Source: Chiloscyllium plagiosum (Eukaryota). Taken from it: DNA of 64,000 nucleotides. Shown here one piece after another: positions 4,701 through 56,235 of this stretch; position 1 is the stretch's first letter; the number at the start of each line of letters is the position of its first letter. The position numbers were made by a program, and so were the translations under genes. The DNA lies in assembly GCF_004010195.1 (NCBI RefSeq), contig NC_057755.1, positions 6,183,474 to 6,247,473 on the forward strand, written 5' to 3'. A model generated the notes under the pieces. The model saw only the letters and a list, made by a program, of their open reading frames with translations, was not told the DNA's origin and made no database searches.

Positions 4701-5586
4701 TTAAGTTAAAAAAAAATCACATGTAAAATGAAAAGGAATGGTCAGTTTATGTAGTTCTGCCCTAAATTTTGTTTGGATCATTGCATAGATGCACGTGTTT
4801 GTGTAAGAACTCAAGTCGGTCAACAGATGCCCAGTCTCATGGACAATGTATACAGAGATAGTACAGTGTATTTGATCAAGCACGAAGTGTTGATCAAGAA
4901 ACTCACTGTAGATGTCGTATTCTGCAATATAAAACGGCCCGCCGCCATGAAGAGCAAAATAATCGATTTTTTTTCGGCTTTTCATCCCTGGTCACTCTGA
5001 TTTATAACATTCTGAACCCGAAGTCTCCAGCGACCATTCCTGCTCATTACGATGTCTCTGGCAGTCATACCATTAAGTAGTAATATCAAAATGAAAGGAA
5101 TCCATGAAACTAAAGTATTTTGCAACTTGGAGTACATTGCACCTACAGGTGTTGTGAGAAACATGACATTGGGACAGTGTCCCCATTGAATATTGTTAAT
5201 TGTGTATTTATGGTCATATACAAACCAAAAAAGGATGTTCTCTAGATATACCAACATCGCCATTAATATTACGACCATGGTTGCAGTTCCCACTGTGCCA
5301 TGCTTGTTATTGAGTTTGCGACAGCATATAGCTATAAATCGGTGAAACGTGAAGTAGACTGTGTACCATACTGACAGATAGACATTGGAGCAGGTAACAT
5401 ACAATGTAAGGTTTATAACCACGGTGAGGAATGATTGTGGAAATTGTTTGTTCAAAATTTGCAGTACAATATCATTACTGAGCTTGACCAGCAGATCTAC
5501 TGTCGCCCTGGCCAGCATGTAGAGTGAAGTGCATTTCGAAAGGCCACAAGTTCCTGTTGAGAGAATCACAGTTGCAAGGAGATTTG
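4701..5586 (-). pseudogene. GPR139/GPR142-like GPCR pseudogene (copy 1), exon 2
   Basis: Acceptor ttcttacag|CA AAT CTC (ANLLATVILSTGTCGLSKC). Family motifs FTFHRFIAICC, MKSRKK and TNTCIYAMIQTKFR are present. Frameshifts occur around 4985-4965 and further downstream, and DRF is changed to HRF. Confidence 0.9.
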
Positions 5587-5732
5587 CTGTAAGAATGGAA
5601 GAAAAGATGGATGAGTCAGAGAACAGAGAAATGTTTGTAAGCTGATGACCCATTAACATTGCTACCAGTTTATTATTCCAGAAACCCAAGTAATATTCTG
5701 GGGATCTGGCTTCCAATCTAAATTCACAATCT

Positions 5733-6080
5733 AGCATGGCATAGTTCCACAGTGGTTAATGCTGCTGCTTCACAACGCCTGGGTGTATAGCTCTATTCCA
5801 CCCTCGGGTGACTAACAGTTTGGAATTGGCACAGGTACCCTGATTCTGCGTGGGTTTGTTCTCAGAGTGCTCTGCTTTCCTCCCATAGTCCAAAAATGTG
5901 CTGCTCAGGTGAATTGACCATAATCACAACATCCGCGCATGTGCAGTCAGTTTGGATTAACAATGTGAAATGCAGTGTCCCAGGGATTGGGGGGAGGGGC
6001 CTAGGTTGAATGCGCCTCAATGGTTCAGTGTGGATTGGATGGGCCGAATGGTTTACATTCGCTCTGTAGGAATTCTATGA
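5733..6080 (+). mobile_element. HE1-type tRNA-derived V-SINE
   Basis: tRNA-like head (cagtggttaatgctgctgcttcac...), V-domain ctgcgtgggttt...tttcctcccatagtccaaaaatgtgc, and a CR1-type tail (gggccgaatgg...ttctatgatt). Lies in the intron of GPCR copy 1. Confidence 0.8.
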
Positions 6081-6794
6081 TTTGAAGCCATGTGGGAAAA
6101 GATTTGATGTGATAAAACAATTCTGAAAAGATAGTCTTGTCTGCGACGATTATTTTTCTGCAGTGAGTCAATGAAGAGATTCCACAGCCGAATTCACATC
6201 TTGCTGTTGTGTATGCACCTACAGAACAGGAACAAAAACAGTGCATTCGCCCCTCGAGCCTGTTGTGCCATTCAATAAGATAATCATCTTCTGTTTATAT
6301 TTTGGATTCCACACTCCTATCGACCCCAAATAACCCACGATTTCCTGACCATACAAAACATTTTCAACACTGATCTGGAAAATGTTTAAGGATTGTGATT
6401 CCACCACCTTCCGAGGAAGTGTAATCCAAATGCGTAAGACCATCAGACAGAGACCAAAAAGGAAGCTCGAATCTTTGTCTTAAAGGGGGAGACCCACAAT
6501 TGAAACAGTGCAAACCGAGATTAGAAAGCGCATCACCACACAACAAGAGGGATGCGATTCTACTGCTCATCCCAAAGTGAAGTTAATGCTCGATCCGTTG
6601 TTCAGTTTAAATCAGAAGTTGACAATTTTATGAAACAAGGGCATGCAGGGATCTATGCCAAAGGCAATTCAATGGATTTACTTAACAGGTCTGCCATTAT
6701 GTCATTGAACAGTAGAAGAGGCTCGAGGGGCTGAATTACCTCTTGATTGGGGGGGTGTATTCGACTCCAAATAATAGTCAACAGAATATATAAT

Positions 6795-6932
6795 TTAAAA
6801 AAACTTGTGGAGGCAGGAGATCTAAAACAAACGGAAACACAAAGAGCTGAAGAAACTCAGCAGGTCTGACAGTATCTGTGAGGGAATGGAGAAACATTGT
6901 TAACATTTCTATTCCAGTGATCCTTCTTCAAA
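6795..6932 (-). mobile_element. Penelope-like terminal fragment
   Basis: The common terminal motif gaaactcagcaggtctg...gttaacatttc...ccttcttca, with a degraded hammerhead-like core on the minus strand. Confidence 0.45.
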
Positions 6933-6938
6933 GTATAC

Positions 6939-7007
6939 CTGGCACACTAAAGGCAGCGAGTACTGGGTAGAAGATATTCTTTATGTGAAAATGATCGGCA
7001 GCATCAT
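6939..7007 (-). pseudogene. GPR139/GPR142-like pseudogene (copy 1), exon 1
   Basis: Reads ATG ATG CTG CCG ATC ATT TTC, then a -1 frameshift, then IKNIFYPVLAAFSVP G|gtatac. This matches exon 1 of the intact copies (YYPILAAIGII G|gt). Its length of 69 nt is one base short of phase 1. Confidence 0.8.
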
Positions 7008-7430
7008 TCTTTCGAAGAATGTTCAAGTTCTCCCTCGTTTATCTTTTCACTGAGGATGGATTGGAAACACACAATGGCTTTCATTTCGAACACCGTTGAT
7101 GAGCAAGCGGGAATCTCGTCTGCATAAAGTTAGTCCTTAATTACTCAATTAACAGGTAGTGCCATTCAGAAAGAATCCGGTGGAAATATTGTCCATGTCA
7201 TCATTGCAAAATAAAGTCAGGACAAGGTATCGTGTCAAAGTGCAAGAGATTGAAGGTTCAAAAGAGACAGGGTGAGTGAGAGAGTGAAACGTGAGTGTGT
7301 GCGAGAGAGAAAGAAAGAGAGACAGAGGTTATCATAATTAAGTTAGGAGAAACAAAATCGGGAAACTGTCAGCAATAATGCTGTCAACTCTCACACTGTG
7401 ACTTCATCTCAAGATCGCAAATTATTATTA

Positions 7431-7690
7431 CTGACACATCGCTGACCACACTCTTCTTGTCACTCTTAATTCAGCGACATCACGGATCTCACTCTTATTG
7501 CCTCTGTCCATCCTGATACATCGTTGATATCACTCTTGCTGTCACCCCTCACTGAGAAACACAAATGACCACACTCTTCTTCTCACTCTCCATTCTGATA
7601 CGTCACTGACCTTTAGCATATGATCACTGTTCATTCAGATACATCACTGGCCTCCTACTCATTGTCATTGTCCTCGCAAATACATCACTG
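7431..7690. repeat. Degenerate ~41-bp minisatellite (~6 copies)
   Basis: A unit like ctgatacatcactgaccacactcttcttgtcactc recurs near 7431, 7472, 7513, 7552, 7595, 7636 and 7676. Confidence 0.75.
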
Positions 7691-7949
7691 AATATGAGAT
7701 AAAATGCATCAGGAAATGGTGTTATGATCGCGGTCAATTCTGACAATATATTTGCAAATTAATAGCAAAACGGTAATGAGTTTATTGAGATTTACATCAG
7801 GAAAATGCAAAGTAAGGTACTCAATTAAGCTAAGAATATGACGGAGATACTAAATGATAACATTTTTCTGGCTTAATTAAGTTAGAAGATAGTGACAAGG
7901 CGAGGTTGAACATTTGGGCGTTAAAAACTCTGAGCATTAGAGCAATAGA

Positions 7950-9345: not shown

Positions 9346-9919
9346 ACCCACAATCGCTTCCATTTGGAAGGTCAAGAACTCCAGTCATATAGGAAAGCAC
9401 CGCCATCATGCTCTCCTGTCAACCACTCACCAGCCTGACTTGGAAATATGTCAGTGTTCCTTCAGTGTTGCTTGTTCAAAATCCTGCAATTTCCTCTCGA
9501 AGGACAATGGGAGTCTAAGTACCTTACATGAACTGTAGTGGAATTAGAATCAACTCACCACTATGTTAAATGGGTACTATTGACGGCAAATAATTATTGA
9601 CCCGTGACTGATTGATAAAGATGTGTTACTTATCCCATGAATGAAAACAAAAGGCAGGCTGGTGACAGGCTTGCTGGTGAGACGCTTGTAGGGGCAGTTT
9701 GACGATGTTTGAATGTATTTGATGCCTTGTGCTTTGAGTTGGTGGAAACTTGTAAGGTTCTGTCGAAGGAAGTCTGACTGATGTTGCACTCCGCTACTTC
9801 TTGTGCATCAGGAGTGAATTGTTCAGCCAGCAGAGATGACTTGGTTAGAACCAAGAATCTTCCTCCACATCTGGCTTTAGCACGTCCCCAAATTACGTTT
9901 GGTCGAATTGATTACAATT

Positions 9920-9990
9920 TCACACTGACAAATACACACACGCACACTCACGCACAAGCAAACACAAACACACACACACACTCACACACA
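9920..9990. repeat. (CA)n-rich microsatellite
   Basis: Imperfect CA run. Confidence 0.9.
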
Positions 9991-10019
9991 GTTGCAGACT
10001 CTTGCTGAAGCATACACTT

Positions 10020-11827: not shown

Positions 11828-13018
11828 AAATGTGTTGCTGAAAAAGCGCAGCAGGTCAGGTAGCATCCAAGGAGCAGGAGAATCGACGTTTCGGGCATGA
11901 GCCCTTCTTCAGCAATGAGGAAAGTGTGTCCAGCAGGCTAAGATAAAAGGTAGTGAGGAGGGACTTGGGGGAGGGGTGATGGAAATGGGATAGGTGGAAG
12001 GAGGTCAAGGTGAGGGTGATAGGCCGGAGTGGGGTGGGGGCGGAGAGGTCTGGAAGAAGATTGCAGGTTAGGAAGGCGGTNNNNNNNNNNNNNNNNNNNN
12101 NNNNNNNNNNNNNNNNNNNNNNNNNNNNNNNNNNNNNNNNNNNNNNNNNNNNNNNNNNNNNNNNNNNNNNNNNNNNNNNNNNNNNNNNNNNNNNNNNNNN
12201 NNNNNNNNNNNNNNNNNNNNNNNNNNNNNNNNNNNNNNNNNNNNNNNNNNNNNNNNNNNNNNNNNNNNNNNNNNNNNNNNNNNNNNNNNNNNNNNNNNNN
12301 NNNNNNNNNNNNNNNNNNNNNNNNNNNNNNNNNNNNNNNNNNNNNNNNNNNNNNNNNNNNNNNNNNNNNNNNNNNNNNNNNNNNNNNNNNNNNNNNNNNN
12401 NNNNNNNNNNNNNNNNNNNNNNNNNNNNNNNNNNNNNNNNNNNNNNNNNNNNNNNNNNNNNNNNNNNNNNNNNNNNNNNNNNNNNNNNNNNNNNNNNNNN
12501 NNNNNNNNNNNNNNNNNNNNNNNNNNNNNNNNNNNNNNNNNNNNNNNNNNNNNNNNNNNNNNNNNNNNNNNNNNNNNNNNNNNNNNNNNNNNNNNNNNNN
12601 NNNNNNNNNNNNNNNNNNNNNNNNNNNNNNNNNNNNNNNNNNNNNNNNNNNNNNNNNNNNNNNNNNNNNNNNNNNNNNNNNNNNNNNNNNNNNNNNNNNT
12701 TGGAACTGGTCCTCCTGGGAGCAGATGCGGCGGAGACGAAGGAATTGGGAATATGGGATGGCGTTTTTACAGGGGGCAGGGTGGGAGGAGGTGTAGTCTA
12801 GGTAGCTGTGGGAGTCGGTCGGTTTATAGTAGATGTCCGTGTCGATTCGGTCACCCAAGATAGAAATGGAAAGGTCTAGGAAGGGGAGGGAGGAGTCTGA
12901 GACGGTCCAGGTGAATTTGAGGTCGGGGTGCAAGGTGTTGGTAAAGTGGATGAACTGTTCAACCTCCTCGTGGGAGCAGGAGGCAGCGCTGATAGAGTCA
13001 TCAATGTCGCGGAGGAAA
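11828..13018 (-). mobile_element. Penelope-like retroelement (RT fragment plus 3' end), interrupted by an assembly gap
   Basis: RT motifs RDIDD, LKFTWT, LPFLDL, YYKPTDSHSYLDYTSSHP and IPYSQFLRLRRICS. The 3' end carries ctgaaga-agggctcatgccc-gaaacgtc (11885-11912). Confidence 0.9.
12081..12699. other. Assembly gap (619 N)
   Basis: Run of N inside the Penelope copy. Confidence 1.
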
Positions 13019-13569
13019 GTGCACACTGAATTGAACGTAAGATTGTTAAACAACTGTACTTTATTTTTCAGAATAAGTCAAGGGGCTTTACTGGATGTTC
13101 AACCAACTCGTCGACAGTTCCTTTGTCCTTGCAAGGAAGTAGTTGCTTGACACATTGTGCTAAAGGTGCTTAGACATGTGCAGTGTCAATGACTGCACGC
13201 ATACATACACAACAACAATGACAATCTCCCTAGGCTGGGCTCTGTGATTTATCGCTCCCTCAGACTCAATCACGTCATGATCCTCCTCTGCTGTAGACTG
13301 TAAATTTCACACACAGAAACATACACAAACCCTCAGTATCATCCCCCTCCGTGGGGGACTGCAAATGTTAAACATACACACACACACACATTCAGTAGAA
13401 TCACACTTTGATGGGGACTTTAAATGTTACATATACACAGACGGTCACAAAATTTAAAGTCACTGCTGGGATCTGCTGTGACTAAGATAATATTCCCATA
13501 ATAAAAACATCATTTTGCAATTCATCTTCAATAATTGCATTTTTTTATTTTTCTCTTTCTGTCCTGAGT

Positions 13570-14015
13570 TTGGATGGTTAAAAAAGCGTTCTGGACATTT
13601 ACCTTTATCAGGCGAAGTACAAATTAGTTGAGCAGGCAGGTTATGTTGGAATTTTGCAGGACTTTGTAGACACCACAGCTGAAGTATTATGTGCAGGACT
13701 GGTCCCGACACTGGCAAGGGTGTGATTGTACTGGAGGGAGTGCAAAGGAGATTTATCAAGACATTGCCTAAGATGGAGCATTTCAGTGAGGAAGAGAGGC
13801 TGCATGATCTCAATTTATTTTCTTTGGTAGTGAGAATGCTAAGCATGCACAAGGGTATAGTAGACAATTGTTCTGCTTTTTTGAAGGGTCCCTAACAATA
13901 GTGCATCATTTTCAAATGAAAGACAAAACCTGCAATCGGAGAGTGACAGTGATCTGGAACGAACTGCTTGGGAGAGGGATTTGAGGCTGGAAACCACACA
14001 ATGGTGAAAAACTAT
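13570..14015 (+). mobile_element. CR1 LINE 3' ORF2 fragment
   Basis: LEGVQRRFIKTLP..EERL..LNLFSL motif. Confidence 0.75.
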
Positions 14016-14017
14016 AT

Positions 14018-15127
14018 GGATGACCAGTTCCACCACAGAACACACCAGATGACCTCCTTCTTCAGAGACCGCAATTTCACTTCCCACGTGGTTAAAGATG
14101 CCCTCCAACGCATCTCGTCCACATCCCGCACCTCCGCCCTCAGACCCCACCCCTCCAACCATAACAAGGACAGAACGCACCTGGTGCTCACCTTATGCCC
14201 CACCAACCATCGCATAAACCAAATCATCCGCCGACATTTCCGCCACCTCCAAAAATACCCCACCACCAGGGATATATTTCCCTACCCACCCCTTTCCGCC
14301 TTCTGCAAAGAGCGTTCCCTCCGTGACTACCTGGTCAGGTCCACGCCCCCTACAACCCACCCTCCCATCCTGGCACTTTCCCCTGCCACCGCAGGAACTG
14401 TAAAACCTGCGCCCACACCTCCTCCCTCACCTCTATCCAAGACCTTAAAGGAGCCTTCCATATCAATCAAAGTTTTACTTGCACATCAACTAATATCATT
14501 TATTGTATCAGTTGCTCCCGATGCGGTCTCCTCTACATTGGGGAGACTGGGCGCCTCCTAACAAAGCGCTTTAGGGAACATCTCCGGGACACCCGCACCA
14601 ATCAACCACATTGCCCCATGGCCCAACATTTCAACACCCCCTCCCACTCTGCCGAGGACATGGAGGTACTGGACCTCCTTCACCGCCGCTCCCTCACCAC
14701 CAGACGTCTGGAGGAAGAACGCCTCATCTACCACCTCGAAACACTTCAACCCCAGGGCATCAATGTGGACTTCAACAGTTTCCTCATTTCCCCTTCCCCC
14801 ACCTCACCCTAGTTCCAAACTTCCAGCTCAGCACTGTCCCCATGACTTGTCCGGACTTGTCCTATCTCCTTTTCCTGCCTATCGTCTTTTCCACTTATAC
14901 ACTCCACCCTCTCCTCCTTGACCTATCACCTTCATCCCCTCCCCCACTCACCCATTGAACTCTATGCTACTTTCTCCCCACTCACACCCTCCTCTAGCTT
15001 TTCTCTCCACGCTTCAGGCTCACTGCCTTTATTCCTGATGAAGGGCTTTTACCCGAAACGTCGATTTCGCTGCTTCTTGGATGCTACCTAACTGCTGTGC
15101 TCTCCCAGCACCACTAATCCAGAATTT
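14018..15127 (+). mobile_element. 5'-truncated Penelope-like element (RT thumb, GIY-YIG endonuclease, 3' terminal repeat)
   Basis: DQFHHRT..FFRDRNF and IIRRHFRHLQ; GIY-YIG NIIYCISCSRCGLLYIGETGR..RFREHLRD (~14490-14590); terminal LQPQGINVDF; hammerhead motif near the 3' end. Confidence 0.92.
15031..15066 (+). ncRNA. Minimal hammerhead ribozyme motif (Penelope-associated)
   Basis: CTGATGA (15035-15041), stem II gggc-tttt-accc, GAAA (15055-15058), then CGTC. Predicted GUC cleavage after 15062. Confidence 0.6.
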
Positions 15128-16998: not shown

Positions 16999-17949
16999 GC
17001 CAACAAAAATATGTTTGATTGTCACTGAGTTAAACAATGGATGGACGTTAAGGGAAGCCTGACTACCAGATAGCATGAAACCAGATGTCGCCTGTTGGTG
17101 AGGAAATCAAACCTCCAATTGTCCTCCAAACCCCAATGCATCTTGTTGACTATTGCTGTGTTTGAAATGAAAAGAAAAATGACATGTTCTTTAACTTGAT
17201 CATAACAGAGAAGAATGTTAAATTGTTGATGTGGTTCCCCTGGTTCAATGCTTGCTTATCAAATTTTGATAGCAGGTAGTTATAAACCTATCAATGCGAA
17301 GGTGATGCGAAAACAAACAGACAAATCATTGTCAACAGTGGTAAAGTACAAAATTAACTTTCAGATGGGAAAGAGGCTCAGTAATGGAAAGTGAAACTTA
17401 AAGCTGAAAATGTGAGACAACATCACATTGAAGGGCATAAACAGCAGATCTCCTGTTGCCATGGTCATCATGTAGACAAACATACACGTCGAAAGGCCAC
17501 AGTTTCCCTTGTAAACAATTACAATAGTGATTCGGTTTCCTGTTCAAAAGTGAGAGAACAAACCGTCAAATATCTTTTTTGTTCATATCTATTAAAGACG
17601 ACTGTATCAGATATTGACAACAATCAGTTGATATTGCCCACTAGAACACCAAAGGCAGCAAGAACCGGGTTGCAAATTTTATAAGTCGACAGAATAATTG
17701 GCTGTCTCATTTTCTGAAAAAAAAATCTATTGGCGATGCACAAAAAGAACATCGTAATGGTTGAATTTATTGAAGCTTCAAACTTCCAGACTGCTAATCG
17801 TTTAAAATTATAATTGCCGTTAAATGCAAAATGTATAAGTCAGTTGGTTGTTTCGTATGACACATCAGACTGAGGGAGACAATGTTGCAACAATACATTC
17901 AGGCAACAGATCAAATCCCCCTGTGGTGTAGCTGACCACCTTCTTAAAA

Positions 17950-21102: not shown

Positions 21103-21524
21103 GATTTTCCAAACAAATCATGGAAACGCAGACTCCTGTTCAATCGTGGCAGAACAGTGCACGATGGATACACCAGTTAGCCAAGTCATGTTTGCCTGGA
21201 TGATATACAGACACAGCAGCTAATGGAACGGAAGGAATTCACAGAGTGCTGCATGTGTGATCGATTGGTGCCATGTTATTTGTATTTCATGAGAGCTGAC
21301 TTGGATCACTTCAGATTTTCCAAACAAATCATGGAAACGCAGACTCCTGTTCAATCGTGGCAGAACAGTGCACGATGGATACACCAGTTAGCCAAGTCAT
21401 GTTTGCCTGGATGATATACAGACAGAGCAGCTAATGGAACGGAAGGAATTCACAGAGTGCTGCATGTGTAATCGATTGGTGCCATGTTCTTTATATTTCA
21501 TGACAGCTGACTTGGATCACTTCA
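21103..21524. repeat. Tandem duplication, 2 x 211 bp
   Basis: 21103-21313 and 21314-21524 are near-identical, with about five substitutions by eye. Confidence 0.95.
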
Positions 21525-24639: not shown

Positions 24640-24644
24640 CTCTG

Positions 24645-28645: not shown

Positions 28646-29517
28646 TTATAAAACCAGAGATGTAAAGGCGTTCTTTATTTTCTCTCTAAACTTAGACTGG
28701 GTTGCTGCATAAATAAATGTGTTTGTGCAGCAACTTAAATTCCGCAACATGATTCCAAAACTTCCAAATATTATTTTAGAGTCAGTGTACTTTATTCCTC
28801 CAATAGAATCAAGAAAGAAGTTTATAATAAATATTAACCAGAGAAGTATAAAACTACCAGATATGGTGAATAGTAAAATGACAGACTTCTTCCTGCTTTT
28901 CATCTCTGCATCGTTGTTTTTCGCACCATTTCTTTGACTCTTCAGCTCCTTACGGACTCGCATCGATGCTAAAATGTATCTGACAGTCAGAGCGTTGATG
29001 AGGAGAATTAGAGCGAATGGAAGAAGTTGGTTTAAAGCTTTAGCAAAGTAGTCATAACCAAACCATGCAGGATCAGTATAATAGCTTGGTTTAGCAGAAC
29101 AAAACCACGGTATATTGTTAACTATTCTCCGGGGCTCATATATGAAAAAGATGGGAACATTTTTCAAGCAAAGCAGAATACAGGTTGTTGAAAGCACCAC
29201 AGCTGCAGTTCTCTCTGTGCAAAATCGTGCTCTCAGATTTTGGCGACAAACAGCTACAAATCGATCAAAAGAGAAAGCCATGGTGAACCATACAGAACAA
29301 TCTATGACTGTATCACATAATGCATCATGAACACTACACGCAGGAGTGATGTCGAGGAAAAATACTGGGGCTTCATAGTAATAAATAACTTCTCTCAATA
29401 TGACTTCAAATATAATGACCAGAAGATCTGCCATTGCCATAGCCACGAGGTAGCGAATGGTGCACTTTGAAATGCCACAATTTCCACGGGAGAGAATCAT
29501 AACTGCCAGCAAATTAG
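28646..29517 (-). CDS. GPR139/GPR142-like class A GPCR (copy 2, intact), exon 2
   Basis: Acceptor tttctcacacag|CT AAT TTG. An open 872-nt frame carries TM1 end to TM7: SRGNCGISKC, AMADLL, DCSVWFT, FDRFVAVC, PWFC, LLPF..ILL.N, SRKKSVILLF, SCCTNTFIY, QSKFRE. Spliced product 312 aa. AATAAA at 28505-28500. Confidence 0.92.
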
Positions 29518-30584
29518 CTGTGTGAGAAACAAAGGAAAAGATGATGGAATTTAATCAGCGACTGTCTTCTATGTCTGACGCGGTCAGTACGGAAATAATG
29601 AAACAATCATAGGGTTTCTGCTGTTGCGAAATCTGCAAATTTAATGCCAAATCTAAAATAACTTCAGAATTACCAAGTTCTCAGATAGTGGAGATTTGTT
29701 GATTCCTGAATTGCATGAGCTTTGTCTGGATCAGTGCCTGATTGAGAGTGGGGAGAGTGCAGACTAATACTTGAATCATGATTTGAATATTTTGAGATAC
29801 AGGCAGTTCTTAATCATTGTGATTCTGATGGAATTCGTTCCAATTTCAAATGGAACTTCTTCCGTGACACTTCAGGGTATAATGCTTTCTCCCCTTGATC
29901 AGACACTCAACACCACTGTTCCTCGCATTATCTCCCAGTCATGGTACACTCCTCTCTATGTTTCGTACACAACTCAGAATCAGATGCATTCCCTGAATGG
30001 TTGTCTTCTCCCATTGTTTCGGTGTAACAGATCTGTTTTATGTTGTTAATCATGTGTCTCCATCCTCAACCAGTGTGAATGCCTTTATGAGCTCACGAAA
30101 TTGTAAGGAATAGTAGGTGGTTCGACCGTTCAAGCCTGAGTTATGTACATGGCGAGTCAAAATATCCCACATTGAATTCTAGCCCTGACCACCTTTCATT
30201 CATTGCGAAAGTAGAATCAATCTAATTCTGCCTCCAAAAGACTGAATGCCTCTCATTTTAATGTCTTTTCAGCAATAGAGTATAATAGACTAGTAAATTA
30301 TGGGATGAAAATCACTAGTCTTGACTCTCTGTTGCATGTGCTGGCCTTAATATTTCCAAACAAACTCTGAGCTCTTGAGAATTCCACAAGATGAACATAT
30401 CCTTCCTTTTGCACGTCAGTGTAGAGGTCATCATTTTATAACTTGTTGGTCCAAGATTCAGAAGGCAGACTAGAATACAACGGAAATAAGATCCAAAACC
30501 TCTCTGATGGTGGGGGGAAATAAACAACATTTCGAACAGCAATGCAATAATCTGTTAAGCCTGAATGCCCACCATTACCATGTG

Positions 30585-30698
30585 GACACACAGACACACA
30601 CACTCACACACACACGCAGACGCACACACAAATCCACACGCATACACAATTTCACACACATACACACGTACAGAGAGAGAGAGAGAGAGAGAGAGAGA
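30585..30698. repeat. Compound (CA)n(GA)n microsatellite
   Basis: CA-rich run followed by a GA run, within the intron of copy 2. Confidence 0.9.
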
Positions 30699-31529
30699 CT
30701 GCAGAACCTCCAATGGACTTGATTCAATTGTATGAACAAGATGGTTTCAACAGCACCAGTATTCAGATCTGAACTTTGATTGCCAAGTTGGCTGTGTTCA
30801 GACGAATGTACAGAAGAGCACACAATGCTGTAAATGTGATTCGATTACAGTTTTAAAAGGCTGCAACATGGTTTGCCAACTTTTATATTCAAGAGCTCGA
30901 CCGATGACGTCACGCATAACATGCACTTTCTTCATGACCCTAGCTGCCTGCGTTGCCATTCTCAGGAACAACTCCTGAAGATATTGACATTGCCAGAAAA
31001 ACGAATTTGCACTCGGAAAGCTCTTAGAAAGTACATGAATAAAATGCACTGTTAATCGTTTGTGGAGCAAGTATTAGGGCTTTCCAAATCTGACAAAAGG
31101 ATACTAGCATGCCTTTGACGTGACAGAGATGTACCTGCATATGGTCTGACATTGACGTTTCACAAATCAAGGCATCATTGCAGTCAATATCTGTGAACAT
31201 TGAGACCCTTCTGGAAAGCAGTAATACAAATGCAACATGAGTGCTCTGTTCATCAAATGCATCTCTCGACTGGTTTACACTAATAGCCCTGAATAAACTG
31301 AATATTGAATTCATTGAAACATTTGAGTTTTCTCATTTAGATCTGTGAATCCATCCTGTGGTTCTTAAAGGGAGGGAAATATTTGATTGCCTCACAAATT
31401 TAAGCAAAGTGCAATAGTTCGTGGTGCATTAAACTTCAAAACAGTAATTTGAATGTAGTTACAAAATTACTTTTTGTTTGAGTGCAGAATAACCATTGGC
31501 CCAAACAATTGCAGATGGAGATTACCTCA

Positions 31530-31965
31530 GCTGAATGAGAGGGGTTACATTTCTGGAAGGTGAATTGGCTCAGGCTTGTGGGGAATGGGGCTGAACAAAG
31601 AGAGTGTAGGGTGCAGATTCACGGTTCCTTGCAGGTGGAATCACATGTAGACAGGAAGTCAAGAAGGGATTTGGAAACTTATGTTTACTGCTACTCCATT
31701 GAATATAGGCGTTGGGGAAGTATATAAAAGGGTAAGTTTTTCATGAAGCGGGTGGTGCGTCCTTGGAACGAGCTGCCAGACTAAGTGGTGGAGTGTGGTC
31801 CAATTACAAAATTACAAAGGCATCTAGATCCGTACACGAATGCAGAGGGTTGAGAGGGATGTCGGTCAAATTATGGAATATGAAATTAAATGTTTTTAAA
31901 ATGTCTGGTCGGCATGGATGGGCAGGGCTGAAGAGTCTGTTTCTGTGCTGTCCCACTATGTGACT
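31530..31965 (+). mobile_element. CR1 LINE 3' fragment (internally deleted)
   Basis: gaacaaagagagtgtagggtgcag, ggaacgagctgccaga and tail gggctgaagagtctgtttctgtgctg. Confidence 0.65.
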
Positions 31966-32819
31966 CTTTGAAATTATGACTACTCTTTTGAAAAAAAAAG
32001 TTAATTTACTGAAGGACGAAACTAATGTGATTACTGAGATAGATTTCTATATGATCATCGGTTAGAAGAAGCCTGAGCAATTTTCCGCAATTTGCAGTAT
32101 TAGCCCATGAAAGTATTTGTCATAAAGCTTCACTATGTCACTGCTGCTTGTGATGCACACGCGCTCTGCGCTGCTTTGAGATTTCTCTCCAGGCCGAATG
32201 TCTTCGCATTATCCCTTTTCAAACTCTATTTGTTGATATCCCGTGCATGGAAATGAAGGGACAGGGCTGTTGGCTTTTACTGGTCAATAAAAGCCATGAA
32301 TCTAAGTGAAAAATCCACATTTTATTTTAAAGGTCTTCACAAGAAAGCACAAATAAAAAATATGCAGAGAATAGAATAAATAGGTTGAGGAAAGTGTAAG
32401 CTATTTTATAATTCAGACATCTTAATTAATTCTAGCAAGGAAATAAATCTTATTTCAAGAACACATAGGTGGATGTTCACAACAACACAGCAGGAAACTG
32501 TTGCAACAGTGGATCTTACTTTGCACAAGTCTACGGGAATAGATGTTTCCAATAGTCTTCTACTGAATGACCACATTAGCCGTTGTTCATTTCAACACTG
32601 GACAGCACGAAAGGCAGTAAATCCTTGCCAGAAAACATTTGAACTACACATAATGATAGCATATCATCTTAAGAGTTGGGATATATTTGCAGAGACAAAT
32701 GAATTCATTTGATCAAACAACTGACGGAATGATTTACGGCCTGTGCAGTTGTGATAAGCACATAACATCATCAGGCACACAGTAACATTTACAAAACTTC
32801 TATTGTCACTCTCACTTAC

Positions 32820-32886
32820 CGAGAAGACCAACAACAGCAAGGATCATATAATATACTTGTTGGAAATCGTACATTTGAAAAGCCAT
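32820..32886 (-). CDS. GPR139/GPR142-like GPCR (copy 2), exon 1
   Basis: ATG GCT TTT... reads MAFQMYDFQQVYYMILAVVGLL G|gtaagtgag. It is 67 nt (phase 1) and joins in frame to 29517, giving GLL-A-NLL. Confidence 0.88.
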
Positions 32887-35859: not shown

Positions 35860-36427
35860 TTATATAAGCTATGAAACCAAAGATGCCAGGCACGTCCATG
35901 ATTTTCTCTCTGAACTTAGACTGAATTGCCACATAAAAAATTGTGTTTATGCAGTGGAGCAATGGAGTTAACCCTTGAACAATGCTCTCAAATCACGCCT
36001 TCCAGGATTAGTATAAATGGTCGGTTTGACGAAACAAAACAATAGAAAATTGTTAACCATCTTCCTAGGCTCATAAATATTGTAATTGAGGATGTTCCTC
36101 AAATAGAGCAGAATGAATGTTGTTGAAGTACCACATCTGCAGTTATCCCGGTGTAAAATCGTGCTGTCAGTTTATTGCAATAAACAGCTGCAAATCGATC
36201 AAAAGAGAATGTGATCGTGAACCAGATAGAGCGCTATATGACTGCTTCAGACAAGGAAAAGTAAATTCTAAATACTGGGGCTTCTTAATAATAAATAACC
36301 ACTCTCAATATGACCTGAAATATAATGACCAGAGGATCTTCCATTGCCATTCCCACAAGGTAGCAAGTAGTGCACTTCGAAATGCCATATCATCTGCAGG
36401 ACTGAATCATAACTGCCAACAAATTGC
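35860..36427 (-). pseudogene. GPR139/GPR142-like pseudogene (copy 3), paralog of copy 2 exon 2
   Basis: Acceptor tcaaacag|GC AAT TTG TTG GCA GTT ATG ATT closely matches copy 2. It has an early TGA, a TAA in place of a Tyr, frameshifts, and a deletion joining TM5 (ttaactccattgctcc) to TM7 (CINTIFYVAIQSKFREKI). Exon 1 was not found. Confidence 0.9.
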
Positions 36428-39999: not shown

Positions 40000-40590
40000 G
40001 CAAAAGTGAGGACTGCAGATGCTGAAAATCAGAGTCCAGATTAGAGTGGTGCTGGAAGAGCACAGCATGTCAGGCAGCATCCGAGGAGCAGGACAATCGA
40101 CGTTTCGGGCAAAAACCCTTCATCGAGACTGAAGGCAGGGAGTCTCCAGGATGGAGAGATAAATTGGAGGCGATTTGTGGGTGGAGAGAATGTAGCAAAG
40201 AGTACAATAGCTGGATGGGGTAGGAATGAAGGTGATAGGTCAGACAGGAGGGTGGGGGGAGTTAGCAAAGACTGCAATGGGTGGATGGGGGCAGGTATGA
40301 CAGATCATGAAGATGGCGCTGAGCTTTGATGTTGGAACAGGGGTAAGGTGGGGGGGTGCGGTAATGAGGAATCTGGTGAAGTCCACATTGATGCCCAAGG
40401 GATTGAAGCGTTCCAAGGTGGAAAATGAGGCGTTCTTCCTCCAGGCGTCAGGTGGTGAGGGAGCAGTGGTGGAGGAGGACCAGACCTGCATGTTCTCGGC
40501 AGAGTGTGAGGGGGAGTTGAAATGTTGGGCCATGGGGAGTGGGATTGATTGGTGCCGTTGTCCCGGAGATTTTCCCTAAAGCTCTCTGCG
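40000..40590 (-). mobile_element. 5'-truncated Penelope-like element
   Basis: AQHFNSPSHSA and GINVDF, homologous to 14580-15127, with a mutated hammerhead core at ~40098-40126. Confidence 0.88.
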
Positions 40591-41359: not shown

Positions 41360-43808
41360 GGAATGTGCTGGTAGACAGCAAGCTGGTTTGAAACGTGTCT
41401 ACTTCAACGCCAGAAATATCCGAAATAAGGAAGGTGAGTTTGCAGTGTGGATCGGCACTTCGATGTTATGGTCATTTTGGAGACATTGATAGAGCAGGGT
41501 AAGGAATCGGTGTTGCAGGTTCAGGGTTTAGAGCTTTCATTAAGAACAGGCAAAACGGTAAAAGAGAGGGAGATTTGACCTTGTTAGCCAAGGAGAGTAC
41601 AACGGTGGCTGAAACATCTTTTGAAGAGAACTCGTCTCCTGAGGTAGTGTGGGCTGAGGTTAGAAACAGAAGAGGAGAGGTAACACTGCTTGGAGATTTT
41701 CACTAGCCTCTGCAGAGTTGCAGGGAGGTGGAAGAGAGGATTGGCAAAATAATTATTGGTAGGAGTGAAAGGAACATGGTGGTCATTTCGGGTCAACTTA
41801 ACTTGTCCAATATTGATGGAAATGCTATAACTGTAGTACGTCGAGTGGGTCAGTTTTTGTCCAATGTGTACAGAAGGTTTTCCGAACACAGAACGTCGAA
41901 GGGCCGACAAGAGGTGAGGTCACATTGGATATGATGCTTGGAAATGAAGCAGGCCAGGTGCTTGATTTAGTTGTAGGCGAACACTTTGGAGAGAGTGACC
42001 ATAATTCAGCTACGAATAGTTTAGCGATGGAAAAGGAAAGGTACATGCCACGCATCAGGAACTATCGATGGGGCAACGGCAATTATAGTCGACAGGAATA
42101 GTGCCAGAAGACTGGAGGATAGCAAATGTGGTTATCCTGTTCAAGAAGGGTAATAGAGACAACCCGATAATTATAGACCAGTGAGCCTTACTTCAGTTGT
42201 TGGTAATATGTTGGAAAAGGTTATAAGGGATAGGATTTATAATCATCTAAAAAAATAATAATTTGATTAGGAATATGCAGCACGGTATTGTGAGGGGTTG
42301 ATCGTGCCTCACAGACCTTATTGAGTTATTTGAGAAGGTGACCAAAAAGGTAGATGAGAGTAAACCAGTTGATGTGGTATACAGGGATTTCAGCAAGGCG
42401 TTTGATAAGGTTCCCAACAGTAGGCTATTGTACAAAATGCAGAGGAATGGGATTGTGGGAGATATAACAGTTTGGATCAGTAATTGGCTTGCTGAAAGAA
42501 GACAAAGCTTGGTGGTTGATTGGAAATTTTCATCCAGGAGTCCAGTTACTCGTGCTGTACCGCAAGGGTCGGTTTTGGGTCCACTGCTCTTCATCGTTTT
42601 TATAAACGGCCTGGATGAGGGAGTAGAAGGGTGGGTTAGTAAATTTGCAGATGACGCTAAGGTTAGTGGAGTTGTGGATAGTGACGAAGGATATTTTAGG
42701 TTACAGAGAGACATAGATAAGCTGCAGAGCTGGGCTGAGAGGTGGCAAATGGAATTAATGCGGACAAGTGAGGCAATTCACTTTGGTCGGAGTAACCAGA
42801 ATGCAATGTACTAGACTAATGGTAAGATTCTTGGTAGTGTAGATGAGTAGAGAGATCTCGGTGTCCATGTACACAGATCCTTGAAAGTTGACACTCAGGT
42901 TGACAGAAAGCTTACGGTGTTTAAGCTTTTATTAATTGACGGATCGAGTCCGGAACCATGAGGTTATGTTGCAGCTGTACAAAACTCTGCTGCGGCCGTA
43001 CTTGAAGTATTGTGTGCAGTTCTGTTCACCACATTATAAGGATGTAGAAGTTTTGGAAAAGGTGCAGAGGAGATTCACTAGGATGTTGCCAGTTATGGAG
43101 GGAAGGTCTTCCGAGGAAAGGCTGAGGGACTTGAGGCTGTTTTCGTTAGCGAGAACAAGGTTAAGAGGTGGCTCAATAGAGACATGTAAAATAATCAGAG
43201 TTTTAGATAGGGTGGACAGCGAGAGCCTTTTTTCCAAGTATGGTGATGTTGAGCACGAGGGGGCATAGCTTTAAATTGAGGGGTGTTAGATACAGGACAG
43301 TTGTCAGAGGTAGTTTCTTTACTCAGAGAGTAGTAACGATATGGAATACTTTGCCTGAAACGGAGTAGTTTCAACAACTTTAAGTACATTTAAGTCTTCA
43401 TTTGACAAGCAAATGGACCTACATGGAATAGTGTAGGTTAGATGGGTTTCAGATTGGTATGACAGGTCGGCGCAACAATGAGGGCTGAAGAGCCTGTACT
43501 GCGCTGTAATGTTCTATTTTCTACTTATAATGCGATTAGGCAAGAATTAGGAATCATAGAATGGGGTAGCAAAATGCAGGGGATGCAGACAATGTAAATG
43601 TGGAGCTGGTTTAAGGAACAGATATTGCGTGTCCTTGATAGGTATGTCCCTGTCAGGTAGGAGGCTTATGTGTTGATGAGACAAGATTGTTCAGATGAGC
43701 GATGGAGAGTTTCAGATCAGCTAAGAATGATTAAAAGAGAGTATTAAGAAGAGCAAAGAGAGGACACGAGCATTCTTTAGCAAATAGAATAAAGGAGAAC
43801 CCTAAAGA
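41360..43808 (+). mobile_element. CR1 LINE endonuclease region hosting a nested CR1; 3' part missing
   Basis: CVYFNARNIRNK at ~41395 and LGESDHNS at ~41985. The host resumes after the insert (NAIRQELG at 43530) and stops abruptly at RIKENPK (~43808). Confidence 0.85.
42088..43529 (+). mobile_element. Nested 5'-truncated CR1 LINE (RT plus 3' UTR)
   Basis: YRPVSLTSV, DFSKAFDKVP, VPQGSVLGPLLF and KFADD; tail gttctattttcta; flanked by TTATA at 42083-42087 and 43525-43529. Confidence 0.92.
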
Positions 43809-43919: not shown

Positions 43920-44797
43920 TTAATTTAGTGGCATTTTTGATCCTCTCTTGCAGAACGTGTTGTCTCTCAGAGTGCACCACTTTCTACCGGATGGCCATAG
44001 CATTGGCAGACCTACTTTCCATTATCACTGAGGTTATTCTGTGGCGGATCAGTTATTATTATTTCCCAGGGGATCTGGTATGCAATATTATCAACGTCCT
44101 GAGTAGTGTAGCCACTGCCTATTCTGTATGGTTCACTGACACTTTCTCTTTTCTCTTTCTGTTGCCAGAAATTGAAAACAGAGTTTTGTACATGGAAAAA
44201 TGCAATGGCAATTCTAATGACAGCAAGCGTTCTGTTTTGTTTAAAGAATGTTCTGAATTACTTCACAGTTGAAGCTTGATTGGTCATTGAACGTGTCCCC
44301 TGTTTCTGTGATTATAAAGCAGAGAACGTTTCTTAGCCTGAGTGGGGTGGAATTCGATTGGTTTGATACACTCTTCACTCCATTGCTTCCATTTGTTTTA
44401 ATTCTGTTGCACAATGCTCTTACACCTAGACACATTTTAATGGCTGGTCCAAAAGAGATTGATGAGTCAGAGAAAGAAAATGAGTGATAGTGACCCAGAG
44501 ATGGAGAGCAGGAGGAAGTCTGTGATTTTACTCTTCGCAATGAGTGGAAGTTTCGTTCTTCTATGGCAAACTTATGTTATAGACAATTCATTTTATGATA
44601 TTACAGAAACGGATCCCAAAGAATACACAGATTCAGAAAGCATTTTTGAAAATGTTGCAGATATGCTTCAGGTTTTGAGCTGCTGCACAAACACATTCAT
44701 CTATGGGGCGACTAAGTCTAACTTCAGAGAACAGTTAACAATGTTGATGAAATTTCCAATTACATCAATCAACAAAATGATTCAGAAACAAAACTGA
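43920..44797 (+). pseudogene. GPR139/GPR142-like pseudogene (copy 4), exon 2
   Basis: NLVAFLILS..C.LSECT, ALADLL, SVWFT, LLPFVLILL.NAL, DPEMESRRKSVILLF and SCCTNTFIYGAT are present. The acceptor AG is changed to AA (43918-43919), the DRF motif is deleted, and there are several frameshifts and stops. Exon 1 was not found. Confidence 0.9.
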
Positions 44798-46055: not shown

Positions 46056-46059
46056 ATAA

Positions 46060-51250: not shown

Positions 51251-51299
51251 TGCAACCAAACCAACACCAAAATAAAGACACTAGACACCAGACCTGACT

Positions 51300-51662
51300 G
51301 ACGTTTACAAACTCTTGAAGGATATAGATAGGGTGGATAGAGGTAAGATTTTTCCCAGGGTGAAGGATTCAATAACGAGAAGTCATGCTTTCAAGGTGAG
51401 AGGTGGAAAGTTTAAGGGAGATACACGCAGCAAATAAATCACACAGAGGGTGGTGGGCATTTCGAACACATTGCCAGCAGAGGTAGGCATGGTAGATTCG
51501 TTTAAGATGCGTCTGGACAAATGCATGAGTAGGTGGGAAGCAGAAGGGTACAAATGCTTAGGAATTGACCAACAGGTTTAGACCATACATTTGGATCAGC
51601 CAAATTGGAGGGCCGAAGGGGCTGTTCCAGGGCTGGAAATTTTCTTTCTTCTTTGTTCTTTG
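51300..51662 (+). mobile_element. CR1 LINE 3' end
   Basis: tacaaactcttgaaggatatagatagggtggat..cacacagagggtggtgg..gggccgaagggg and tail tttcttctttgttcttt. Confidence 0.8.
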
Positions 51663-53844
51663 TGTAATATTCACATCAGAATCCCTGTATCTATTACTTG
51701 GCTAAATGACTTGTGACTGCCACTTCTAAACTGTCACTATAGTGAATGTCTTCCTAGAGCTACGGTACACCTGAGTGTCACTGTACTCTACTTGAAACAA
51801 TCCCTTCAGAGCTTTTCCTTGTCCCAACACTTCTGTCTGGGACCAACACAACTTTTCATTCCAAGGCAGTCTAATCTAAAATAGTTAAAAATGGAACACG
51901 TGCTAACAGGTTGAAGTTAGATGGGTAGAAGGGGAGAGAGAGGGTTTCCATACAGCTTACCTTTGAACACCTAACTAGTTCTGGATTAACCGCTCAGCTC
52001 GAGAGCTGATCACTCCCCTTTCATTACACAGGTAACTTCTAAAACATGACCAAGTTGGCCCTAAGTCTCAACTGTTTGCATATGAACAAAACGGCCGCTG
52101 AAAACACTTTAAATCTCTGTACCAAACCAACCTAATCGGCACCAAAAGCGTTTCAGAACCCTATGGAAAAAAAAAACAAATACATGCTATCCTTGAAAAA
52201 AGGAACATCTTTGAGAAAAAATGGAAGCACATGTCTCATCTTACACTGTGACCAGTTAGAATCATGCTCTTTTCTAACCCCTCATGAAATATGTCCTCAC
52301 GAACTGGTCATTAATACTCTCTTTCTGCCTGGAAAAACTTGTTGTTGGCTCGTAATCTCTTTTTTCTATATGTCAATTCATTGTCATCTCAGGATTTTGG
52401 ATGTCCTTTCATGTTATCAGGGTCTGCTCAGACTCAATCTTCTATCATAACATCCATTCCTCCCCTCAGCCAACACCCAACTCTCTCACTCTCTCACTAT
52501 CCATAATGCTACATCTTCTTCGGCTTTCCTCAACGTTTTTGCTAGGTTCTTTGTCTCCTTCTTTGTGAAGGTCCTTGACTGGACGTGACCTCACATCAGA
52601 ACCACACAATCCCCATGCCACATCATGTCTCTGCCATTGGACTGAACAACGCATTCCCTCTTTCCACAAAACCAGATAAGATCCTAAACACACAGATCAA
52701 GAATTACCATGCATTGCCTCTCGCAGGCTCTCTTTCTGCATCCCACCGTGACCTGCAGCCGCTGTGCACCCTACACACACCCAGAAACACACACACATAC
52801 GTCTGCCACTCCTCAGTTTTATACCAGGCCTTCACTGCCCCTCACATCGACTGGCAGACTACCACACTGGCATCCTGCTCATAGTCCAGCTGAACTTCTG
52901 CTACCATCCCAGCTGATACCCTACCCATATTCGTGCTGGGCTTTCTAAACCCTCCCCAGTTAGTAATCTAAGTATGTGGCCCCGAACCACCATGCACCTT
53001 AAAACCTGGCACATTTACGTCACTATCCTTTGGCCACCTGTTTCTGACAGTGCTGTCAAATCACCCTTTGTATATGCATAATGTGACACTTTCAGCCAGG
53101 ACAGATCTGTCAGTATAGAAGCATGCTCCCGCGTTCCTAAGGGTTATGCTGAATGGAATCTCCTGTCAGAAATGCAGCACTCCGTTCTTTCATCAGAAAG
53201 AGAAGTGCTCTGATGGCAATCTGCGTGAGATTCCCACCCGCTTGAAAACTTGTCCCAGTGTTTTGTTGGTTTAAAAGGCAATAAGGAAGGAAAAGCTCCA
53301 AATCAGATTGGTAAAGAATAATTTTTGTGCTAACTGTAGTGCATTTTTTTTGTCTTTCAAAAATAGTTCGAAGCCAGTTTTTAACTTATAACTTCTTTAT
53401 TTTCCCACTTAACACGAAGAAGGACTGCAACGTTTTTACTTTTAATTTTGTTTCTTTACTTTTCTACTTTGTATCTAAGATTTTGTACCTCGCTACCTTT
53501 CTGGCTAAGATAATTTTGGAAATGGCGACATTTTGCACTTTTCACTGTAGTCATGTACTTCTGTTCTTCTTATCGTACACATGACGATAAAAAAACTAAT
53601 TCTAATTCTCAAGAAATTAGTGACACTTCATTTTTTATTATAAATTGTATGGTGTAATAACCTTCAGAGGGAAGTAGTTAATTTGCTGCTTGTTCAGATT
53701 AACGTAATTTGTCATTCTGCCAGATGTATTGTCTCACAGGACATTTCTCTTCCAAATAAAATGAGATTGTGTTGACGATAATATTGTTTTTCAGCAGACA
53801 GCATCAATGACTCGACGTTAAAACACAGATCTGATTGGCACAGA

Positions 53845-53914
53845 ATGAAATACTCAGTAATTTTAAATGTAGCGCGAATTTACTACCCAATACTTGCAGC
53901 TATTGGCATTATTG
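53845..53914 (+). CDS. GPR139/GPR142-like GPCR (copy 5, intact), exon 1
   Basis: MKYSVILNVARIYYPILAAIGII G|gtaagt; 70 nt, phase 1, in frame with 55331. Confidence 0.9.
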
Positions 53915-55330
53915 GTAAGTTCTTAAATCTGGTTATGCTTGTGGAAATCAATTTAATTCCGCTCCGTAATCATTTATTCAAATTTGACAAACTTTCCCCA
54001 GCTTTTGGCTATTTCCAAACTGCAATTCTAGTGGTTTCACCAGTAGTTCATTTTTATTATTGATTCCTCCAATTGCTGAATAAGGTTTGCTTATGCATGT
54101 TGTACAGAGTATTTAGTTCCAACACAGAGCAAGCTGAGTCAACATTTATTCCCAATGTGGACTTATACTTCAGAAGGTGTTGGGGAGTTGCCTTCCCAAA
54201 CCACTGCAGACCAATTGTAAGAGCACTGATAAAAAGGGTGCAAACATACCCTTCGGTCCAATTCATTCATGCTGTCGAGGTTTCCACAATCGAACCACTC
54301 CCATTGCCTGCTATTAGCTCATATCCTGCTAAATCTTTCCTTTCTGTGTAGCTGTCCAAATGTCTTTTAATTGATCTAGCCACACTGAAGGATCGGAGAT
54401 GTGTTTCCAAGCCAGGAAGTTCACTATCTTGAAGAGAGCTTAAAAGTGATGTCATTCCCATCCATCTGCTGCTCTTAGACAGTAGCGGCTGTGAGGACGA
54501 GAGGGAGCTGTCTGAGCAACCTTGGTGAGATGCTGCAATGTGTCTTGTAGATGGTACACGCTGGTTGTCACTGAAAGATAGTGGGGGGGGGGCGAATAGA
54601 CTGAAGGGTTTTGGATGTGGTGGCAATCAAGTCGGCTGATATATGCTGGAAGAAAGACAAACTACTGCAGATGCTCGATATTTGCAATAAATAAATAAAA
54701 TATCGGATGAAGTCGGCAGACCAGGAACTTCTATGCAGAGGGAAACAAACGTTATGTCTTCGTGTGTGGCATGACTCTCCTGCAGACTTTCCTATAGTCC
54801 TGGATCGTGTTTGAGTTCTTGCATGTTGCGGGAGTTCCACTCATTCAGGCAAAGTGGGGAACATTCTCTCACACTCATGACTTATACCTTGCAGATGGTG
54901 GACAGTCTTTGAGGATTCATGAGGTGAGTTTTTCGCTGCAGAGCTCCTATCCTCTGACACCCGGTAGAAGCAACAATGCTTACATGGCTAATCCAGGGCA
55001 GGTCTGGGACAGTGGTATTCTCCAGAATCCATTAAACATTGTGCTTAATCAGTCAGAGAACAGATTTGCATTCATATATTTCATTCATTGCGAATTTTTG
55101 TCCTTACTTATTTAATTACTCGCTTTGTCAATTGGTTCACAGCTCATCTTTATTTAATTCTGGTTTGCTTGAGTCATTAGTTTCAATCTACATTTTCATC
55201 ATGCATCATTTAATTGAATTAATATATTAATCTGAGGGAACTGGCACGGTTTGGCAGACGTATTAAACTTATGTTTCTGCTTTGACTCCAGTCGTGAAGA
55301 ATTGTAATTTTCTGTAATTGTTTCTTACAG

Positions 55331-56235
55331 TGAACTTTGTGGGAATCGTGATTCTGAATCGAGGCAATTGCGGCCTCTCCAAATGCATCACTCGCTATTT
55401 GTTGGCAATGTCTGCAGCAGATCTACTTCTCGTCATCCTTAATGTCATACTGAACCGAATTAATAATCTTTATTTCCCAGTTACTTTCTTATCCATCACT
55501 CCTTTGTGTGCCTTGAGAGTTGTTCTGTGCCTGGCAGCCTTGGACTGCTCAGTTTGGTTCACAGTTGCTTTCACATTTGATCGGTTTGTCGCGATTTGTT
55601 GCCAGAAGTTAAGAGCGAGATGTTGCAATAACAGAACTGCACTTGTGATTATAATAGTTGTGAGTGTGGTCTGCTGTTTGCGGTCAATTGCTTGGTATTT
55701 TGTATTAGCTCCTGCAATTATCATTGACAATGTGCCATGGTTTTGCGTCATAATATCAGACTATTATACATCATTATTTTGGAAAATGAATGAATGGATT
55801 GACATTATAATTATACCGCTGCTTCCAATTCTGTTAATTTTAATATTCAATGCTCTGACTATCAGGAATATTATAAGAGCCAACCGCATCCGCTGTCGCC
55901 TTCAGAACCAGGGAAATGGACAGAATAGTGTTGATCCAGAGGTCTTAAACCGGAGAAAATCCATCATCTTGCTCTTTGCATTGTCTGCTAATTTTATAGT
56001 GTTCTGGATGACACATGTCATACGGTCTTTATTCTGGCCAGAGGTAAACTATAATTACGAAGACAAGACTTTAAACGATCCAACATTTATCTTTCAAGAA
56101 ATTGGATTCATGCTACGGCTTCTGAATTCGTGCACCAACACCTGCATATACGCTCTAACACAAACGAAGTTCAGACAAGAGTTAATCAATGGAGTAAAGT
56201 ATCCATTCAATCAAATTGTTAAGCTATGCAAATAA
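55331..56235 (+). CDS. GPR139/GPR142-like class A GPCR (copy 5, intact), exon 2
   Basis: Acceptor tttcttacag|TG AAC TTT. An open 905-nt frame has NRGNCGLSKC, SAADLL, TPLC, DCSVWFT, FDRFVAICC, PWFC, PLLP, NRRKSIILLF and SCTNTCIYALTQTKFR. Spliced product 324 aa. Confidence 0.93.

Follow-up and report, generated by a model that had tools for sequence, protein, structure and literature searches.

A tandem cluster of GPR139-related receptor genes in Chiloscyllium plagiosum and the cartilaginous-fish receptor family to which it belongs

GPR139 is a G-protein-coupled receptor (GPCR) encoded by two exons, and its zebrafish form is 70% identical to the human protein (PMC7318219). The catshark has separate GPR139 and GPR142 genes, whose products are 81.3% and 58.7% identical to those of the mouse and are reciprocal best hits (PMC13200729). 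Near these two receptors, the orphan 'GPR210A/B' and an unnamed third subtype have been reported from bony fishes and the coelacanth (Rinne et al. 2019, PMC6504862). In protostomes, the sister receptors of the GPR139 group are given as those for MIP, proctolin, FMRFamide and myosuppressin, and a peptide receptor whose ligands had aromatic C-termini is proposed as the ancestor of the group (PMC8557429). Cartilaginous fishes, for their part, are described in the whale shark paper as relatively poor in GPCRs (PMC8455134), with very low numbers of odorant receptors (ORs), TAARs and V1Rs and a nose dominated by V2Rs (PMC10116579). Here we describe a tandem cluster of six GPCR loci in a 64,000-nucleotide stretch of the Chiloscyllium plagiosum genome (NC_057755.1, positions 6,183,474 to 6,247,473, forward strand; hereafter the window). 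The cluster belongs to a GPCR family with birth-and-death evolution, probably a receptor repertoire, in a lineage where none was expected; its genes are already in RefSeq under a misleading name. The initial annotation of the window had called the family unrecognised, which is half true: RefSeq models the genes, but wrongly named.

Six receptor loci in tandem

Translating the window in all six frames, and querying it by tblastn with its two long open reading frames, we located six related class A GPCR loci at 4701–56235. Their mutual similarity is far beyond chance, as the tblastn E-values range from 1e-78 to 1e-11. Loci A (4701–7007), B (17008–17710), C (28646–32886) and D (35894–36427) lie on the minus strand, and loci E (43920–44797) and F (53845–56235) on the plus strand. 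The initial annotation had correctly placed the cluster in both orientations across this interval and had counted five loci, two intact and three pseudogenes. The two intact copies, C and F, stand, but there are six loci and four pseudogenes, A, B, D and E, all with stops and frameshifts. The features are as follows.

4701..5586, minus strand: locus A exon 2, pseudogene; in-frame stop near 4982 and frameshift at about 4855–4885; 38–39% identity to F and C
6939..7007, minus strand: locus A exon 1; 69 nt against 70 in F, hence frameshifted; GT donor; phase-1 intron of about 1.35 kb; profile score 29
17008..17539, minus strand: locus B exon 2 remnant, pseudogene; one stop and four frameshifts; traceable to transmembrane helix (TM) 5 only
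17641..17710, minus strand: locus B exon 1; ATG kept, donor damaged; intron of only about 100 bp
28646..29517, minus strand: locus C exon 2, intact; spliced protein of 312 residues; 7tm_1 E 8e-22; tail 7 residues below the family mode
32820..32886, minus strand: locus C exon 1; ATG, GT donor; phase-1 intron of 3302 bp
35894..36427, minus strand: locus D exon 2, pseudogene; three stops, one frameshift, most of TM5–TM6 gone; tandem segmental duplicate of C
43920..44797, plus strand: locus E exon 2, pseudogene; acceptor lost, at least 3 frameshifts and a stop
53845..53914, plus strand: locus F exon 1; ATG, GT donor; phase-1 intron of 1416 bp
55331..56235, plus strand: locus F exon 2, intact; spliced protein of 324 residues; 7tm_1 E 2e-15; 87% identical to a zebra shark RefSeq model

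Loci C and F each comprise two exons with GT-AG splicing, and both proteins match Pfam 7tm_1. Class A membership is further indicated by seven helices and by N1.50, D2.50, D/E-R3.50, P5.50 and Y7.53. All five intracellular motifs that the initial annotation had listed as conserved (RGNCGxSKC, DRFVAxC, RxKSxILLF, TNTxIY and QxKFR) occur in both intact proteins. The short N-terminus that it had described is likewise borne out, with N1.50 at residue 26 of F and 47 of 58 scorable homologues starting within one residue of the same place. A frame upstream of the F start codon (53782–53844) is open for 21 codons and contains an N-glycosylation sequon; it is probably untranslated, because the homologues mostly start at the methionine of F. 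The tail of C runs 20 residues past Y7.53, against a family mode of 27 (window 28646–28710), with helix 8 intact and an early stop possible.

First exons were sought with a profile that covered the first half of TM1 in 57 homologues and was calibrated on reversed sequence. Loci F, A, C and B scored 47, 29, 25 and 24, against a best reversed-sequence score of 10; neither this profile nor blastn found exon 1 of D or of E in the window. A phase-1 intron in TM1 had been proposed for every locus. Both of its splice sites are present in A, C and F only: B has the acceptor and a damaged donor, D has the acceptor, and in E the acceptor is destroyed (CAA for CAG). At the expected position of the missing first exons of D and E lie fragments of a long interspersed nuclear element (LINE) reverse transcriptase (41817–43517), which we take to be of the CR1/L2 type, and homology to the C intron reaches 40992. 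A shared upstream non-coding exon was considered and rejected, since acceptor-like sites occur in 2 of 4 loci and in 444 of 2000 random windows.

C and D form a segmental duplicate in which 27.1–30.0 kb matches 34.1–37.0 kb at 65–74% nucleotide identity, the flanks and intron aligning at 64–74%. Between them, the synonymous divergence (dS) is 0.56 and the pairwise ratio of non-synonymous to synonymous divergence (dN/dS) is 0.36 over 137 codons. Ratios for deeper locus pairs were not relied on, their dS of 1.8–3.2 being near saturation.

A cartilaginous-fish family distinct from GPR139 and GPR142

A protein search with exon 2 of F gave 1550 matches at E<=1e-3, of which the best 120, a set biased towards F, were inspected in detail. 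Within these best 120, 118 are chondrichthyan, representing 21 species of which one is a chimaera and the others are sharks and rays, and 117 are named 'probable/putative GPR139'; the best is a zebra shark RefSeq model, XP_048381255.1, at 87% identity. Thirty-two of these 120 proteins are from the horn shark. Their genes occupy 17 scaffolds, 11 of which are longer than 20 Mb, and the family is thus dispersed over many chromosomes. When representatives clustered at 50% identity were searched exhaustively, 110 clusters were obtained at E<=1e-30. Of the 16 representatives looked up, 15 are chondrichthyan, and 31 of 47 full-length representatives were assigned to the family by sequence only. Other RefSeq and UniRef names of family members are 'capa receptor-like', 'vasopressin V2 receptor-like' and 'uncharacterized', and an Atlas search returned the database label again.

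Five of the six loci could be placed in a tree, B being too degraded. C and D group together and A, E and F each fall in a subclade of their own, which indicates that the cluster mixes old and younger paralogues. Terminal branches are 0.13 for both C and F against 0.49–0.75 for the pseudogenes (126-row tree). Members of the F subfamily are retained in both sharks and skates, with 64–87% identity and largely shared pocket residues. The nearest horn shark relatives of F and of A (P0006, P0010, P0179) lie on a scaffold of equal size (74,915,995), a hint that the linkage of A and F is old. These data support a large birth-and-death expansion in cartilaginous fishes, with dozens of versions in sharks and rays, where amphibians appear to have a single one.

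Is this family simply GPR139? Human GPR139 is the best sequence match in the PDB (profile E 1e-19, against 1e-11 for the next), and RefSeq applies its name; shark orthologues of GPR139 or GPR142 that sense Trp and Phe would explain both. We find this hardly credible. F shares 67 identities over 250 residues with human GPR139, about 27% by hand count on the alignment, and the catshark has a separate GPR139 and GPR142 (PMC13200729). The pocket differs as well. The GPR139 agonist contacts are E108 (3.32), R244 (6.51) and N271 (7.38/39), with D84 (2.61) nearby (PMC12775434). Mapped by hand onto the PDB-match alignment, sites 3.32, 6.51, 7.39 and 2.61 are C, H, F and N in F and C, F, I and R in C. 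Among 169 family members, E3.32 is retained in 0, R6.51 in 1, N7.39 in 16 and D/E2.61 in 23; a basic residue of any kind occupies 6.51 in 4. P6.50 is present in just 40 of the 169. C3.25 is found in 163 of 169, together with a cysteine in extracellular loop (ECL) 2, and the aligned human GPR139 has neither. Nor is the family single-copy: there are six loci in 52 kb here and at least 32 proteins in the horn shark. Low identity, lost pocket residues and a separate catshark gene refute GPR139 orthology. The link to aromatic amino-acid or metabolite sensing that the initial annotation had drawn is weakened, because the GPR139 ligand contacts are absent.

The likeness to GPR139 is nevertheless one of kinship. 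The family is nearer to GPR139 than to other solved receptors, and its TM7 motif is without proline 7.50, as in GPR139 (human structures 7VUG and 9M42), which fits membership of the GPR139/GPR142/'GPR210' supergroup. The GPR139 intron probably lies at the same position, just before N1.50. GPR139 has two exons, as the shark genes do (PMC7318219), whereas the long ECL2 with its cysteine, C3.25, and the multiple copies with pseudogenes set the shark family apart. As judged from its sequences, the family is related to GPR139 but distinct from GPR139 and GPR142.

Beyond the shark matches, three conserved non-mammalian groups were recovered, which we term subtypes I, II and III. Among the matches listed, subtype I comprises coelacanth, teleosts, amphibians, reptiles and three sharks, and subtype II comprises teleosts. 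Subtype III comprises a sturgeon protein and amphibian sequences, the latter at 66–74% identity to a newt query and forming a single cluster in each species listed; the gene is present in Xenopus tropicalis. We built a main tree of 54 rows (LG+C20, bootstrap/SH-aLRT) and a quick tree of 126 rows, both without true GPR139 or GPR142 and rooted on five probably invertebrate proteins. In the 54-row tree the shark family forms one clade (96/84) and joins subtype III (98/94); the 126-row tree agrees (94 and 92). On these trees the shark family is the sister of the conserved amphibian and sturgeon gene, subtype III. The DPE motif of the third inner loop is distributed in the same way, occurring in 16 of 20 subtype III sequences, 140 of 169 family members and 0 of 98 sequences of subtypes I and II. 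Four of the five motifs quoted above are found in 82–144 of the 169 members and in 0 of 118 single-copy relatives; the fifth, as QxxFR, is not family-specific, occurring in 85 of 86 subtype I sequences.

The three subtypes probably correspond to those of 'GPR210' (Rinne et al. 2019, PMC6504862), also three in number, with the shark family as sister to III. That paper covers no shark genome ('shark' occurs 0 times in it) and describes no expansion. R6.51 is kept in 98 of 98 sequences of subtypes I and II and is lost in the shark family; subtype III has K6.51 and N7.39 in 20 of 20 sequences. In subtype I (P0222, P0331, P0375, P0381 and relatives), automatically named GPR139, R6.51 occurs in 86 of 86, E2.61 in 86 of 86 and D7.36 in 85 of 86, which makes this subtype the better candidate for a GPR139-like ligand. 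Two subtype I models are named TMEM183A. In subtype III (P0232, P0271, P0275-P0291, P0294), S1.50 (19 of 20) and N2.50 (20 of 20) replace the near-universal N1.50 and D2.50, and pocket conservation is 0.96.

Pocket, cytoplasmic face and possible functions

To compare site conservation, paralogues were set against single-copy orthologues matched in overall identity. Among 36 horn shark paralogues, identity is 0.60 overall, 0.48 in the pocket and 0.61 in the intracellular loops; among 86 subtype I orthologues the values are 0.59, 0.77 and 0.43. A second species, with 19 paralogues, gave the same picture (0.46 and 0.65). Permutation reached the pocket-specific drop in 0 of 20000 trials over all TM sites and in 50 of 20000 over outer-half sites. 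The 36 horn shark paralogues display 29 different 8-site pocket strings, and core signalling residues are nearly invariant across the family. The matched comparison therefore indicates that the paralogues conserve the signalling face and vary on the ligand side, as the initial annotation had anticipated. Its further claim that TM3, TM5 and the extracellular loops diverge is true in part. Between F and C, divergence is highest in TM4 (7 of 23 identical), TM5 (12 of 33), TM6 (12 of 31) and ECL3 (1 of 13), and the outer turns of TM3 also differ, but TM3 is the best-conserved helix (21 of 35) and ECL1 is conserved at 6 of 9. Clustered birth-and-death evolution, a varied pocket and a conserved cytoplasmic face occur together, and the conservation pattern fits a receptor repertoire. 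The broader proposal of a lineage-specific expansion rather than GPR139 or GPR142 orthologues holds up on the tree, the family size, the identity and the pocket residues.

What might such a repertoire do? We place about even confidence in the intact copies being a set of sensors for varied outside chemicals, probably peptides. The family has multiplied in cartilaginous fishes, and copies with different pockets would detect different outside chemicals. All copies would feed one shared G-protein pathway and would be expressed in chemosensory cells of the nose, taste organs, skin or gut. The ligands would probably be short peptides, given the ancestry among peptide receptors and the AlphaFold model of F exon 2, which predicts seven helices and an ECL2 β-hairpin (mean pLDDT 80.7). 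Most top matches of a fold search are peptide receptors. A narrower version is rather doubtful: a fifth, overlooked family of olfactory chemoreceptors, in which hundreds of receptors derived from one gene kept by amphibians would be expressed one per rosette neuron and would outnumber the V2Rs.

Several observations weigh against a sensor repertoire. Matches of the fold search within class A are nearly tied (TM-scores of 0.63–0.77), which makes the peptide hint weak, and their rank order was not used to name a ligand class. In a catshark brain-plus-olfactory library, the 50 most abundant and specific genes reported include no GPCR of any family (PMC11979771). For exon 2 of F, a search of sequencing runs listed no RNA run; four entries of one study, possibly the source of the assembly itself, contained about half of its words, and neither outcome was taken as evidence. 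The trees lack true GPR139 and GPR142, and the pocket was defined as 30 generic class A positions, with approximate TM4 numbering. In the cross-species F subfamily the conservation of the pocket is not significantly raised (0.70 against 0.64, p=0.37, 8 sequences). Among the paralogues, moreover, pocket sites do not vary more than the rest of the outer-TM sites (0.48 against 0.51, p=0.56), so relaxed selection explains the pattern as well as diversifying selection does. Such relaxation is what genomic drift would produce, with duplication in a slow-evolving, repeat-rich genome leaving redundant copies under weak selection and with one ancestral function. That four of six loci are dead and that LINE-type fragments fill the spacers of the window agree with drift. 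We nonetheless consider it quite unlikely, as the F subfamily persists across sharks and skates with its pocket residues largely shared, the intact copies have short branches and dN/dS well below 1, and the core signalling residues barely change.

Immune surveillance would leave a sequence signature identical to that of an outward-facing chemosensory repertoire. Leukocytes, mast-like cells or barrier epithelia would use the receptors to detect microbial or damage-derived peptides, a role that formyl-peptide and MRGPR receptors play in mammals. Cartilaginous fishes are reported to be without MAS1 and its relatives, which would leave that role open (PMC8455134). The supplements of two single-cell studies of shark immune cells (PMC11372145 and PMC10529500) contain no 'GPR139' or 'receptor 139' entry, weak evidence given that their table gene naming is unchecked and one file holds only 4,750 characters. 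We regard an immune role as unlikely. Finally, the receptors could have diversified as detectors of endogenous peptides or metabolites in the gut, the brain or the gonad. The ancestry in a group of peptide and amino-acid receptors (PMC8557429) favours this, as do the K6.51 and N7.39 of the amphibian sister gene. Yet receptors for endogenous ligands usually remain stable 1:1 orthologues, as subtypes I and III do here, a point that PMC2576165 argues likewise for nematodes, and a basic 6.51 is found in only the four shark members noted above. An endogenous role therefore seems improbable to us, and sensors of outside chemicals remain our preferred reading.

Other features of the window are repeats. 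A remnant of a retroelement at about 11900–15100, presumably Penelope-like, has reverse-transcriptase and GIY-YIG-like frames and contains the 619-base N gap of the window; a second copy lies near 40045–40588. A 211-bp tandem duplication at 21103–21524 (97.6% identity) is either recent or an assembly overlap. A short frame at 2718–2996, which we assume to resemble the integrase of a long-terminal-repeat retrotransposon, encloses a 40-bp near-perfect palindrome (2824–2863).

Comparison with known receptor repertoires

Our literature searches, with most subscription papers outside their coverage, found no paper describing the shark family. The string '139' is absent from the main text of the catshark sensory paper, and no match was found in the supplements of PMC10115646 and PMC11589584 (each minus one file), PMC8455134 (half of 24 files covered) and PMC13188829. 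Marra et al., in the white shark genome paper of 2019 in PNAS, reportedly noted that the white shark and the whale shark have multiple copies, and mentioned a few dozen of the 'probable GPR139' genes and a possible olfactory role, which would remove priority for the bare idea. The RefSeq label is unsafe for transferring ligand or function to shark models. Sharks are renowned for their sense of smell. A large, ancient and fast-turning family under a wrong automatic name challenges the picture of sharks as poor in GPCRs with few ORs, and makes the family a directly testable candidate for a missing repertoire, sensory or immune. Its conserved amphibian sister gene is an accessible starting point for finding the ancestral ligand and site of expression.

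Like the OR, TAAR, V1R/ORA and V2R/OlfC families, the shark family has clustered paralogues, a high share of pseudogenes and a varied pocket, and the N-termini of ORs and V1Rs are short, as here. It belongs to none of the OR, TAAR, V1R and V2R families by Pfam, in which F and C match only 7tm_1, and its best matches are GPR139 and peptide receptors. A closer parallel is the srw family of nematodes, a birth-and-death family that is related to myosuppressin and FMRFamide receptors and for which a role in the sensing of peptides from the environment has been proposed (Thomas and Robertson 2008, PMC2576165). The two differ in that srw expanded independently in another phylum, and the ligand proposal is speculative in the srw paper itself, so the comparison is one of analogy; F and C do not match Pfam srw (PF10324), and only some of their relatives do. 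What srw and the shark family have in common is a clustered arrangement, birth-and-death evolution, a conserved disulfide and, for srw, kinship with the protostome sister group of GPR139 and GPR142 (PMC2576165, PMC8557429). If the olfactory proposal were true, the same ancient lineage of peptide receptors would have become a chemosensory repertoire twice, as srw in nematodes and as the present family in sharks.

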